Virus record (IMG/VR): IMGVR_UViG_2562617057_000001
Coordinates: 1 to 4,127 of that record
Source: a virus
Lineage: Duplodnaviria > Heunggongvirae > Uroviricota > Caudoviricetes
Length of the DNA stretch: 4,127 nt
Strand: one strand, 5' to 3'
Made by a program: the position numbers and the translations under genes. Position 1 is the first letter of the stretch. Each line of letters opens with the position of its first letter. Of this stretch, positions 1-4,127 are shown piece after piece. The notes below the pieces were generated by a model. The model had not been told where the DNA came from. It worked only from the letters and a program-made list of their open reading frames with translations, and ran no database searches.

Positions 1-746
1 ACCGGGATTTTTCCACTGTGCCGCTTCTGTGCGAAGGGGTTGTTCATGCCGTTAACCGATGAGAGATCGATACGACATCGGGTTGTCTGGGAAAGCGCGG
101 CATCAATAAGTAATGGTCGCTGGAGAAAAGCAGCCTCATCCACAAGATAAAGGGTCGTACGGTCACCACGACCGATATTATCGCCAGCCTCACCTTTGAT
201 AACCGCGCCAGTTTCAGGAAACTCAACACGCATATATGGCGCGTGCTTCTTCTCGCTCCACGAACCGCGAAACTCTACAGGTAGTGTTTCCACGAACTTG
301 CGCGCCTTCCAGAACAATGCTTTCGGGTCACCGGTGCTGTCGACGTATTCCTCTTTACGGGAGCCGAAACCGATAACCATTTCTTTGTTGAAGAGACAAA
401 GCGAGCAGGCCAGTCCGATCGCGGTCCAACTGAGCCCCATTTCACGGGATTTATCGGTAATACCATTCTCCCGATTGCTCCAGCGTTCCATAATCCAGTG
501 GATCCACTCCTCCTGCTTAGGGAAGAGTAAAAACGGAATGGTCACCGGCAGGCCATAATCAATATTACGCGGGTCCGTTGTCATGCCCCAGTCGATGATG
601 AACTGAGCCGGATTGGTACGGTAAAACTGTTTTAGTGCAGGCAATATTTCAGGATTCTGGCGAATGCGCTGTAGGCGTTCCATCCGCCATTCAAAAACCA
701 TCTGGTAATCAGGATGTTTAAAATCGAAGGGGAATGGTAACGGCAT
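1..746 (-). CDS. terL: Phage terminase large subunit, N-terminal ATPase portion (partial; 3' end lies beyond window start; codon-aligned 3..746)
   Basis: Not in the ORF track because it has no stop in the window. I translated the minus strand by hand: ATG at 746..744, 248 sense codons with no stop down to position 3 ([20 protein letters not shown]...[11 protein letters not shown]...LYLVDEAAF...[13 protein letters not shown]). Deviant Walker A-like KSREMGLS (approx 432..452) resembles lambda gpA KSARVGYS; Walker B-like LYLVDEAAF at 126..152. Start lies 2 nt after the terS stop (TAA 751..749), the canonical terS-terL coupling. Confidence 0.8.
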
Positions 747-748
747 AC

Positions 749-1303
749 TTAGCCCATCATTTTTCTATACACCTCTGCGGCCTGCTCAGGCGTTAATTTG
801 GTAATTTCTGTTCTGACTGGTCCTCCGTCAGCGCCAGTCACTTCATTTTTGACGTTGTCTTTAAACGCCTGAACAGAAACATGGCGCCCAAGCAACTCAA
901 GGTTTTTAACCTTATCAGGCCATTTGATTTTCTTCAGAAGTGCGGCGCTATCTGCGGATACCATCTCCACGACATCCATTCCTGATAGCGTTGTGCGCCA
1001 TACCTTAGGCCAGTCTTTAATGGGCTTTAGCTCACCGTTTTGCAGGAGAATGTCGAGCACATCCATCTGGTCGATTTCAACCAATCTACGAAGAACATAA
1101 GCGGCATCTATACCTACCTCTTCGTTTCGCTCGGCTTTAAGCTCAGCAATGCGCTTTGCGATATTAGCTTTTATTAGGTTTTTGCATCCTTGTACGGCGG
1201 CAGAATCCTCACTGTAACCCGCCCTGATGGCTGCTTGCGTGGCATTGAGATCTTTCAGGTACTCACGGGCAAACAGCTCTTGTTTGTCGGTGAGCTTTGC
1301 CAT
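749..1303 (-). CDS. terS: Phage terminase small subunit (Terminase_2-type, N-terminal HTH)
   Basis: 184-aa ORF. N-terminus [40 protein letters not shown] matches the conserved terminase small-subunit signature as I recall it (KQExFxxEYlxdxNAtqAaxrAGYS). GGAG Shine-Dalgarno at 1312..1315 (minus strand), 8 nt upstream of ATG 1303. Sits immediately upstream of terL. Confidence 0.85.
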
Positions 1304-1351: not shown

Positions 1352-1376
1352 TGAACCGCCCCGGGAATCCTGGAGA
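1352..1376 (+). repeat. IS left inverted repeat (IRL)
   Basis: TGAACCGCCCCGGGAATCCTGGAGA. The reverse complement of 2637..2661 is TGAACCGCCCCGGGTTTCCTGGAGA, giving 23/25 matches (mismatches at positions 15 and 16). Confidence 0.85.
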
Positions 1377-1405
1377 CTAAACTTCCTGAGAAAGAGGTAA
1401 ACAGG

Positions 1406-1732
1406 ATGACTAAAAATACTCGTTTTTCCCCCGAAGTCCGTCAACGGGCAGTCCGTATGGTTCTGGAAAGTCAGGGCGAATATGACTCACAATGGGCGAC
1501 AATTTGTTCCATTGCTCCAAAGATTGGCTGTACGCCGGAGACTCTGCGTGTCTGGGTTCGCCAGCATGAGCGGGATACCGGGGGCGGTGATGGAGGGCTC
1601 ACCACCGCTGAACGTCAGCGTCTGAAAGAGCTGGAGCGTGAAAATCGTGAACTGCGCCGCAGTAACGATATCCTTCGCCAGGCTTCCGCTTATTTTGCGA
1701 AGGCGGAGTTCGACCGCCTCTGGAAAAAATGA
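1406..1732 (+). CDS. IS3-family transposase OrfA (HTH/leucine-zipper DNA-binding subunit)
   Basis: 108-aa ORF. AGAGG Shine-Dalgarno at 1393..1397, 8 nt before the ATG. Ends WKK* on the A6 run. Heptad-like [20 protein letters not shown] is typical of IS3 OrfA. Confidence 0.9.
1724..1732 (+). promoter_or_regulatory. Putative programmed -1 ribosomal frameshift site (A6 run; orfA stop overlaps orfB ATG)
   Basis: AAAAAA at 1724..1729 occupies the last two Lys codons of orfA. TGA stop at 1730..1732 overlaps ATG 1729..1731 of orfB, which is in the -1 frame. IS3-family elements make an OrfAB fusion transposase by -1 slippage on A-rich heptamers (established for IS911, IS3, IS150). Confidence 0.6.
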
Positions 1733-2619
1733 TGCCACTGCTGGATAAGCTGCGTGAGCAGTACGGGGTCGGACCGCTATGCAGCGAACTGCATATTGCC
1801 CCGTCAACGTATTACCACTGTCAGCAACAGCGACATCATCCGGATAAACGCAGTGCCCGTGCGCAGCGCGATGACTGGCTGAAGAAAGAGATACAGCGCG
1901 TATACGATGAAAATCACAAGGTATACGGTGTGCGTAAAGTCTGGCGTCAGTTGTTACGGGAAGGCATCAGAGTGGCCAGATGCACTGTGGCACGTCTCAT
2001 GGCGGTTATGGGACTTGCCGGTGTTCTCCGGGGTAAAAAGGTCCGTACGACCATCAGCCGGAAAGCCGTTGCCGCAGGCGACCGCGTAAACCGTCAGTTC
2101 GTGGCAGAACGACCTGACCAGCTGTGGGTGGCTGATTTTACTTACGTCAGCACATGGCAGGGCTTCGTCTATGTGGCGTTCATCATTGATGTGTTTGCCG
2201 GATACATCGTGGGGTGGCGGGTCTCATCGTCCATGGAAACGACATTCGTGCTGGATGCACTGGAGCAGGCGTTATGGGCCCGTCGACCGTCCGGCACGGT
2301 CCATCACAGTGATAAAGGTTCTCAGTATGTATCGCTGGCCTACACACAGCGGCTTAAGGAAGCCGGATTACTGGCATCAACAGGAAGTACAGGCGACTCG
2401 TATGACAACGCGATGGCGGAGAGCATCAATGGTCTTTACAAAGCGGAGGTAATACACCGTAAGAGCTGGAAAAACCGTGCAGAAGTGGAACTGGCCACAC
2501 TCACGTGGGTGGACTGGTATAACAATCGACGATTGCTGGAAAGGCTGGGCCATACTCCTCCGGCAGAAGCAGAAAAAGCTTATTATGCTTCCATCGGAAA
2601 CGATGATCTGGCAGCCTGA
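1729..2619 (+). CDS. IS3-family transposase OrfB (DDE integrase/rve catalytic domain)
   Basis: 296-aa ORF in the -1 frame relative to orfA. Catalytic triad read from the translation: D136 (WVADFTY), D195 (HHSDKGSQY), E231 ([12 protein letters not shown]), spacing D-59-D-36-E, the classic DD(35)E pattern. Confidence 0.9.
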
Positions 2620-2636
2620 GTTCACAGATAAAACAC

Positions 2637-2661
2637 TCTCCAGGAAACCCGGGGCGGTTCA
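2637..2661 (-). repeat. IS right inverted repeat (IRR)
   Basis: Reverse complement matches IRL at 23/25 positions; the element ends ...GGTTCA at 2661. Confidence 0.85.
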
Positions 2662-2664
2662 TCC
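2662..2664. repeat. Target-site duplication (TCC), right flank of IS copy 1
   Basis: TCC directly abutting the IS right end, matching TCC at 1349..1351. Confidence 0.7.
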
Positions 2665-2739
2665 CGTGTAGGGTATAAGCCATTATCAAGCCCACCCGTA
2701 GATAGGCTTTGTAATGAAGAGCCGTTGTGAAAGTAGCTC

Positions 2740-2952
2740 TCAGGTTGTCATTTTTTCCCTTTTCTGCCTACCTGCCCACTGTTTTGCAATGTACAGGCAG
2801 TCATCGAAAACTCGGCCTTTTCTGCTGGCTTGTGAACAACGGCGGTAATGCTCCACCGCCATGTCAGCGCCAGTCATAGCCGCGTTCTGGTCGTACCCAA
2901 GCTTTATTAACTCGGTTGTTACATTTTTATGTATGAAATCAATCGGAGTCAT
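2740..2952 (-). CDS. Hypothetical small protein (70 aa), translationally coupled to the upstream Rha-like gene
   Basis: ATG 2952..2950 overlaps the TGA stop (2951..2949) of the upstream ORF, an ATGA overlap. Same strand as the phage genes. I recognise no motif. Only a weak Shine-Dalgarno, so expression probably relies on coupling. Confidence 0.5.
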   Translation of the reverse strand: MTPIDFIHKNVTTELIKLGYDQNAAMTGADMAVEHYRRCSQASRKGRVFDDCLYIAKQWAGRQKREKMTT

Positions 2953-3386
2953 GCTGGTTTACCATCAGAGAAATCCCCCATGTCACATAGCTTGAACTGA
3001 ATCAGATCCTTCACAAGCTGCTCAGCCTTTTTAATGGCCTTCTTCTCTTTCTTCCGACGAGTCATGAGAGCGCTACCTGCTTGACCGTGCATTTCAAATG
3101 AGAACTTCTCAGCAGCCGCGACACGGTTTTGCATTTCGCTGATTGCCATATCGGTCAGGCCAGAGAAATCGAGGAGGTTAATGTCCTTCCCGCCCTCAAG
3201 CTCCGTCATGTGGTCATACACCTGCGCCTGAAGCTCATAGCTGTAGCTCATTGCCATGAGGCAAGCTTCACGCTTGGGAAAATTGCAAATATCCCTCTCC
3301 ACAACACCACCTGTTCCGTTGATATAGGTATCAGTTGCAAAAAATTTTGCAGCTGCATCCCCGAGGACCCTGGGTACTTTCTTCAT
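2949..3386 (-). CDS. Putative phage regulatory/antirepressor-like protein (Rha/Bro-N-like region); possibly the 3' remnant of a gene interrupted by IS copy 2
   Basis: 145-aa ORF from the first ATG. The segment PKREACLMAMSYSYELQAQVYDH resembles the conserved core of Rha/Bro-N/KilA-N-type phage regulator domains (recollection, low certainty). The frame stays open for 33 more codons upstream until it hits the IS junction at 3480/3481, and there is no clear Shine-Dalgarno before ATG 3386. Confidence 0.5.
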   Translation of the reverse strand: MKKVPRVLGDAAAKFFATDTYINGTGGVVERDICNFPKREACLMAMSYSYELQAQVYDHMTELEGGKDINLLDFSGLTDMAISEMQNRVAAAEKFSFEMHGQAGSALMTRRKKEKKAIKKAEQLVKDLIQFKLCDMGDFSDGKPA

Positions 3387-3480
3387 GAAACTGCGGTGTT
3401 CGAGTTTGCGATATTTCTTACAGGGGAACGCAAGCCCCTCCGCCTCCGCTTTGGATTTCCGATCAGCATTAATGTAATCC

Positions 3481-3505
3481 TGAACCGCCCCGGGAATCCT
3501 GGAGA
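3481..3505 (+). repeat. IRL of IS copy 2
   Basis: Identical to 1352..1376. Confidence 0.85.
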
Positions 3506-3534
3506 CTAAACTTCCTGAGAAAGAGGTAAACAGG

Positions 3535-3861
3535 ATGACTAAAAATACTCGTTTTTCCCCCGAAGTCCGTCAACGGGCAGTCCGTATGGTTCTGGAAAGT
3601 CAGGGCGAATATGACTCACAATGGGCGACAATTTGTTCCATTGCTCCAAAGATTGGCTGTACGCCGGAGACTCTGCGTGTCTGGGTTCGCCAGCATGAGC
3701 GGGATACCGGGGGCGGTGATGGAGGGCTCACCACCGCTGAACGTCAGCGTCTGAAAGAGCTGGAGCGTGAAAATCGTGAACTGCGCCGCAGTAACGATAT
3801 CCTTCGCCAGGCTTCCGCTTATTTTGCGAAGGCGGAGTTCGACCGCCTCTGGAAAAAATGA
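3535..3861 (+). CDS. IS3-family transposase OrfA (copy 2)
   Basis: 108-aa product identical to the 1406..1732 product. Confidence 0.9.
3853..3861 (+). promoter_or_regulatory. Putative -1 frameshift site (copy 2)
   Basis: Same A6 run and ATGA overlap as copy 1. Confidence 0.6.
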
Positions 3862-4127
3862 TGCCACTGCTGGATAAGCTGCGTGAGCAGTACGGGGTCG
3901 GACCGCTATGCAGCGAACTGCATATTGCCCCGTCAACGTATTACCACTGTCAGCAACAGCGACATCATCCGGATAAACGCAGTGCCCGTGCGCAGCGCGA
4001 TGACTGGCTGAAGAAAGAGATACAGCGCGTATACGATGAAAATCACAAGGTATACGGTGTGCGTAAAGTCTGGCGTCAGTTGTTACGGGAAGGCATCAGA
4101 GTGGCCAGATGCACTGTGGCACGTCTC
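3858..4127 (+). CDS. IS3-family transposase OrfB (copy 2), N-terminal 90 codons only; continues beyond window
   Basis: In frame with ATG 3858 to the last base of the window ([11 protein letters not shown]...TVARL); identical to the copy 1 orfB 5' region. Confidence 0.85.

Follow-up and report, generated by a model that had tools for sequence, protein, structure and literature searches.

This locus raises the question of whether the 145-aa open reading frame (ORF) that starts at the ATG at 3386 is a gene in its own right or what is left of a longer gene after an insertion sequence (IS) removed its 5' end. The window, i.e., the whole 4,127-nt stretch of DNA that was analysed, is the entire contig AAKB02000002.1 (4127 bp) of assembly GCA_000167915.2, and its source strain is enteroinvasive E. 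coli (EIEC) 53638. The WGS project AAKB02 represents EIEC strain 53638 of serotype O144 (PMC4374849). All prophage genes of the window are carried by the minus strand, and both IS elements by the plus strand (Table 1). On its left side the contig breaks off midway through terL, near codon 249, where the window shows no repeat.

Table 1. Positions of the features discussed in the text. Positions refer to the 4,127-nt window; L001 is an intact, IS-free prophage locus and L003 another IS-free locus.
Feature	Position	Strand	Evidence or remark
terL, 5' part	1..746	-	collinear with L001 1779..3398(-), 7 mismatches/1351 nt; continues beyond the left contig end
terS, terminase small subunit	749..1303	-	PF03592 Terminase_2, phrog_51, L001 annotation
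IS629 copy 1, complete, 1310 bp	1352..2661	+	orfA 1406-1732, orfB 1729-2619
70-aa ORF, phage family of unknown function	2740..2952	-	phrog_4439, E 1.3e-34; hypothetical in L003
Rha-like gene remnant, 5'-truncated	2949..3480	-	1 mismatch/819 nt vs IS-free L001 (gene 4288..4884(-)); protein alignments A1, A2
ATG of the 145-aa ORF WP_000757687.1, equal to internal Met54	3384..3386	-	without Shine-Dalgarno motif
31 complete codons D23-F53, genuine coding sequence	3387..3479	-	identical to L001 residues 23-53
TCC adjoining the left end of IS copy 2, presumed target triplet	3478..3480	.	IS-free site GTAATCC|ACCATC
IS629 copy 2, cut by the contig end	3481..4127	+	left inverted repeat 3481-3505, orfA 3535-3861, orfB from 3858

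Over its full length (1310/1310 nt), the first IS copy shared 99.7% identity with elements annotated as 'IS3 family IS629'. Its orfB lies one frame back (-1) from orfA, and the gene products were matched by the Pfam families HTH_Tnp_1 and rve. The terminal inverted repeats consist of 25-nt arms (1352-1376 and 2637-2661) that are 92% complementary (TGAACCGCC...GGCGGTTCA), and the element starts with TG and ends with CA. This copy occupies intergenic DNA, with the 70-aa ORF on one side and terS on the other, and is flanked by a TCC duplication (1349-1351 and 2662-2664); the filled site reads TTATCC-IS-TCCCGTG and the empty site, TTATCCCGTG, has one TCC. Copy 1 thus went in by simple insertion and duplicated 3 bp (TCC) of its target. 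The second copy was 100% identical to the first over the shared 647 nt (3481-4127 vs 1352-1998), and the contig ends 647 nt into it, before its right end. Its first base is 3481, exactly where the first-pass annotation had put the boundary, and it is preceded by TCC as well.

The sequences preceding the two insertions are alike: both 1338-1351 (AGTTAAGTTATCC) and 3467-3480 (ATTAATGTAATCC) are AT-rich, end in ATCC and agree at 9/13 positions. Judged from this similarity, the AT-rich targets ending in ATCC could reflect a target preference of IS629. The two copies stand in direct orientation, 819 bp apart, and thereby offer a substrate for deletion by homologous recombination; formally, the arrangement resembles a composite element. 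No other genome with two IS629 copies arranged in this way was found in the complete-genome E. coli collection.

When the minus strand was translated, the frame of the ORF 2949..3386 proved to be open upstream of the ATG at 3386 as far as the IS boundary. The upstream peptide, QDYINADRKSKAEAEGLAFPCKKYRKLEHRSF, comprises 32 codons (3387..3482), whereas the first-pass annotation had given 33, a number that counts the ATG itself. The first of these codons, CAG (3480-3482), is a hybrid, with its third base (3480) belonging to the gene and the other two to the terminal TG of the IS. It had also been proposed that the frame runs right up to the IS boundary; it is indeed open that far, but no stop is met there, and the same frame continues for 29 codons into IS copy 2 until the TGA at 3570-3572, so that 61 open codons lie upstream of the ATG at 3386. 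None of these 61 codons is ATG, GTG or TTG. Likewise, the 20 nt before the ATG at 3386 (AACTCGAACACCGCAGTTTC) contained no Shine-Dalgarno (SD)-like motif, which agrees with the earlier remark that this start lacks an obvious one. The part of the open stretch that lies within the left end of the IS (3483-3572, minus strand) runs antisense to orfA and has no canonical start. A fusion protein reading into the left end of the IS was rejected since the IS-derived stretch has no in-frame start, and its openness was attributed to chance.

The probability of a 32-codon stop-free run came to about 0.16 when the base composition of the region was taken into account and to 0.21 when all codons were treated as equally frequent, in line with the previous estimate of roughly 20%. 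Taken alone, the stop-free run is thus a weak statistic, and it is homology that indicates the open frame to be real. The 819-bp segment between the two IS copies (2662-3480) was uninterrupted in 17 complete E. coli genomes with a best identity of 99.9%, and no 100% match was found in the complete-genome E. coli collection. The IS-free loci that carry a 597-nt gene past the junction showed 97-99.9% identity. We inspected four IS-free loci (L001-L004), in which the gene lies at about 4270-4884. The gene was 597 nt long in three of them and a 602-nt frameshifted pseudogene in the fourth, and in all four it had its stop at the equivalent of window position 2949 and extended 65 nt past the equivalent of position 3480. 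Some annotations of these loci call the gene product "hypothetical protein", others "Rha family transcriptional regulator".

In L001 the product is a 198-aa protein, MNKSLTVLPSGEYPTMSSLEMV|DYINADRKSKAEAEGLAFPCKKYRKLEHRSF|MKKVPRVLG..., and the true ATG is preceded 9 nt upstream by an AAGGA ribosome-binding site in the intact locus. This protein is WP_004996416.1, the exact sequence of which is present on 495 contigs. The alignment to intact homologues in IS-free prophages, which the first-pass annotation had suggested as a check, therefore uncovered a longer, 198-aa gene that reaches 65 nt beyond the junction. The window retains the third base of codon 22, codons 23-198 (D23-A198) and the stop (2949-2951); M1-V22 and the AAGGA site are lost from it, the cut being placed exactly at the first IS629 base, 3481. 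A single amino-acid change, P to S close to the C-terminus, distinguishes the remnant from the intact protein. Upstream of the accepted ATG, the intact locus has no in-frame stop for at least 68 codons (L001 4885-5058, minus strand), and an in-frame ATG lies 58 codons up; gene callers still pick the SD-preceded M1 (198 aa) or, in some records, M16 (183 aa).

The N-terminal part missing from the window includes highly conserved residues. A total of 1,944 homologues were found among 5.8 billion proteins, and the best 120 listed were 180-223 aa long, mostly 194-207 aa. Homologues starting at the position equivalent to the ATG at 3386, i.e., at Met54, which the first-pass annotation had named as an observation that would speak against a truncation, were looked for, and none was present among the 120 best matches listed. 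A few entries of 183 aa begin at Met16, a position likewise on the far side of the IS. Two alignments, with 26 and 103 homologues drawn from many genera of the Enterobacterales, showed residues P14, T15, M16, S18, E20, M21 and V22 to be at least 90% conserved or invariant, and the nearly invariant block PTMSSLEMV|DYINADRK spans the breakpoint. The PHROG profile matches begin at residues 1-6 of the intact protein. We used the AlphaFold model (mean pLDDT 74.7) of a full-length relative with 89% identity. In this model, residues 16-117 form a compact N-terminal domain, and two long C-terminal helices (128-187) come after it; the breakpoint lies inside the first confidently predicted helix (18-35, block-mean pLDDT 77-92), at the start of which the PTMSSLEMV segment stands, and Met54 inside the predicted helix 50-68 of the N-terminal domain.

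It follows that reading the 145-aa ORF as a native gene, with the open frame upstream of it being accidental, is extremely improbable. The computed chance of the open run (about 0.16-0.21) would be compatible with such a gene, and its product is listed as a protein in RefSeq. However, the 31 codons upstream of the ATG at 3386 are identical to residues 23-53 of the 198-aa protein found on those 495 contigs, and these residues include positions (Y24, I25, N26, R29, F40, P41 and H50) that are invariant in the 103 homologues. In addition, a start lacking an SD motif and the occurrence of the 145-aa form (WP_000757687.1, "hypothetical protein" in RefSeq) on this one contig only, in the collection searched, argue against a native gene. 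The intact 198-aa protein, the starts of its 120 listed homologues and the conserved N-terminal block refute it.

We consider it highly probable instead that IS629 inserted in the 5' part of a 198-aa Rha-like late-operon gene, leaving codons 23-198. The homology to the intact gene ends at 3480, and the inverted repeat of the IS starts at the very next base, 3481, which implies that the truncation was made by the IS. The earlier proposal that the IS had landed inside the 5' part of this gene is thus borne out by the 198-aa orthologues, by the at least 90% conservation of residues within the 14-22 segment and by a break that coincides with the IS629 terminus to the base. The host locus would be the late operon of a lambdoid prophage, in which the gene occupies the place between an Rz-type lysis gene and the terminase genes. 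The second IS629 would have landed after nt 65/66, at the border of codons 22 and 23. The IS separates the gene body from its own ATG, the AAGGA site and the first 22 codons, including PTMSSLEMV.

The junction at 3480/3481 could in principle be an assembly or cloning chimera, the gene being intact in the real genome. The contig stems from a draft Sanger-era (2000s) assembly, is short and ends in a high-copy repeat. Nevertheless, the join is located at the exact first base of the IS629 inverted repeat and follows a TCC as in copy 1, which a random chimera would not do, and we regard an artefact as highly unlikely.

What lies on the far side of IS copy 2 can be stated with less confidence. The TCC preceding this copy, together with the empty site GTAATCC|ACCATC, makes an insertion with TCC duplication the simplest reading, and such a simple insertion, leaving a 65-nt stub and a second TCC just past IS copy 2, is the probable course of events. 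The right flank would then read TCC-ACCATCTCAAGACTGCTCAT..., and the reciprocal junction ...CCCGGGGCGGTTCA-TCC-ACCATCTCAAGACTGCTCATGGTCGGGTATTCGCC.... Alternatively, the gene was truncated at the IS, and a later recombination or an IS629-mediated deletion or inversion joined unrelated DNA, with the stub and the lysis genes lost or located elsewhere. Several features of the locus would allow for this: the contig is short and unplaced, with IS629 at one end and the interior of terL at the other; two identical direct copies are available within the window; and a junction query, half of which is IS629, matched 3,611 of the 5,426 complete E. coli genomes at up to 50 places per genome, which makes partner copies plausible. 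The predicted reciprocal-junction peptides were also absent from the protein collection, as searches with seven exact candidates (3-bp, 4-bp or no duplication; short or long start) gave only the intact protein and the remnant, but ORFs so short may go uncalled, and their absence from a protein catalogue says little. Against a rearrangement, the neighbouring copy 1 shows all the marks of a simple insertion, including the duplicated TCC, copy 2 follows the same TCC triplet, and the flanks have hardly diverged from the intact prophage, suggesting a recent event. A secondary rearrangement appears rather unlikely, albeit a serious alternative for the far side. The truncation at the IS holds whichever far-side history applies.

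Compared with the intact prophage L001, there was 1 mismatch in the 819 nt that separate the IS copies and 7 in the 1351 nt to the left of copy 1. Such low divergence of the flanks, together with the identity of the two IS copies, suggests that the insertions are recent. The 145-aa ORF is most likely an untranslated pseudogene rather than a gene, because there is no in-frame start before Met54 and no SD motif, and no promoter-like site was detected in the region 2600-3800. An outward promoter borne by the IS was rejected for the same lack of a promoter-like site. It could be argued that the remnant is nonetheless expressed from Met54 or from a non-canonical start, e.g., as a dominant-negative partner of the full-length Rha-like proteins of other prophages, given that the ORF is intact apart from the single P to S substitution and that the long C-terminal helices of the model could mediate oligomerisation. 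However, besides the lack of initiation signals, such a product would begin in the middle of a domain, and its near-identity to intact alleles is equally explained by a recent insertion, which makes expression very unlikely. Very unlikely, too, is the notion that the IS629 pair and the 819 bp between them act as a composite unit, or that the 145-aa fragment is expressed and interferes with the full-length Rha-like regulators of co-resident prophages; neither the composite-unit nor the interfering-fragment idea has support here.

Both IS copies are antisense to late transcription and precede terS and terL, and they would be expected to stop transcription into these packaging genes or to exert polarity on them. 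The prophage, whose late operon has received two insertions in 2.1 kb, is therefore probably defective, with crippled DNA packaging.

The assignment of the disrupted gene to a family is less straightforward. The first-pass annotation had labelled it "Rha/antirepressor-like", and the NCBI name, the PHROG and fold matches and the gene slot are in favour of this label. NCBI names the identical intact protein and many of its relatives "Rha family transcriptional regulator". The profiles phrog_63 (anti-repressor Ant) and phrog_4936 (transcriptional regulator) matched residues 5-141 and 6-118, respectively, with E values of about 1e-11. The Foldseek search against viral models (BFVD) returned KilAC antirepressors, KilA and Rha-family regulators with E values from 1e-7 to 1e-3 and low TM-scores, and the tblastn matches included 'antirepressor' genes of Pseudomonas and Acinetobacter phages. 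In its matches to phrog_63 and phrog_4936 and in the Foldseek and tblastn searches, the protein thus resembles the Ant/KilA-N/Bro-N antirepressors. On the other hand, neither the intact 198-aa protein nor the remnant matched Pfam PF09669 (Phage_pRha) at E≤1, and NCBIfam gave no match for this allele. Among the relatives, PF09669 was matched by 11 of 26 at E≤0.1 (best E 4.2e-06), and four relatives scanned singly reached 25.8-27.7 bits, which is below the gathering cut-off of 29.9. A search for informative PDB matches gave none. We thus refer to the protein, loosely, as a divergent Rha-like or antirepressor-like late-region protein of unassigned function, and not as a demonstrated PF09669 member.

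According to PMC4936722, the product of rha (orf201) of P22 and of rha of phi80 is detrimental to lytic growth without IHF; the same paper describes P22 rha as a late-operon gene and, citing Mozola & Friedman 1985, gives the Rha phenotype as known for phi80 and P22 only. Like P22-type rha, the gene studied here is small, belongs to the late operon and stands between the lysis cassette and terS. The P22-like phage PS34 carries a bona fide PF09669 gene (68.5 bits) in the same slot, between genes 15 and 3, but the PS34 Rha protein has no detectable pairwise or profile similarity to the Rha-like protein of this locus. Orthology to P22 rha was rejected, as no P22-like phage was found by tblastn, and both BLASTP and hhalign against PS34 Rha came out empty.

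The order Rz/lysis protein, Rha-like gene, (small ORF), terS was the same in the four IS-free prophages, which comprise three terminase modules. Downstream of the lysis cassette, the Rha-like gene is combined with Terminase_2 and DUF1073 in one packaging module, with a lambda-like DNA-packaging protein and terL in another, and with another terS/terL pair in the third. The 70-aa ORF lies downstream of the Rha-like gene, and the start of the former overlaps the stop of the latter in ATGA. It is annotated in some IS-free genomes (L003), is absent from the annotation of others (L001) and travels with the Rha-like gene. In STEC299 (L004) the Rha-like gene is independently frameshifted. Across the loci L001-L004 the Rha-like gene appears to behave as a mobile, dispensable module.

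The event itself is of an ordinary, already known kind, i.e., a 5'-truncated prophage pseudogene made by IS629 in an IS-rich EIEC genome. As in the IS629-mediated inactivations in Shigella, EIEC and EHEC, the element is the same (99.7% identity, 1310 bp, orfA/orfB, 25-nt repeats), the coding sequence is split at the IS terminus, and the host belongs to the IS-rich Shigella/EIEC group; the 3-bp duplication is shown here for copy 1. In S. boydii, for instance, IS629 interrupts fimH at codon 264 (PMC4374849). IS629 copies also occur inside Stx prophages, e.g., LC567824.1. In contrast to these cases, the target gene and site are strain-specific here, as none of 5,426 complete E. coli genomes contained this gene/IS junction, and one side of the insertion is visible. 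The locus adds one more case of IS629-driven prophage decay in the Shigella/EIEC lineage. Its main value lies in annotation, and it raises no new biological question: WP_000757687.1 is the tail of an IS629-disrupted gene that was entered as a normal protein, and it should be recorded as a pseudogene with WP_004996416.1 as the intact form.

The phage collection lacked the Rha-like gene, apart from an Erwinia phage protein of 78% identity, and DNA-level matches in this collection were limited to window positions 2662-2741, in Stx and P22-like phages. This segment is intergenic and lies upstream of terS; it was shared with Stx-converting phages (2662-2717) and with P22-like Salmonella phages (2681-2741) at 96-100% identity, and the matching phages have no adjacent Rha-like gene. 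From these matches, the segment 2662-2741 looks like a mosaic junction and is possibly a conserved late-operon or pac-proximal element.
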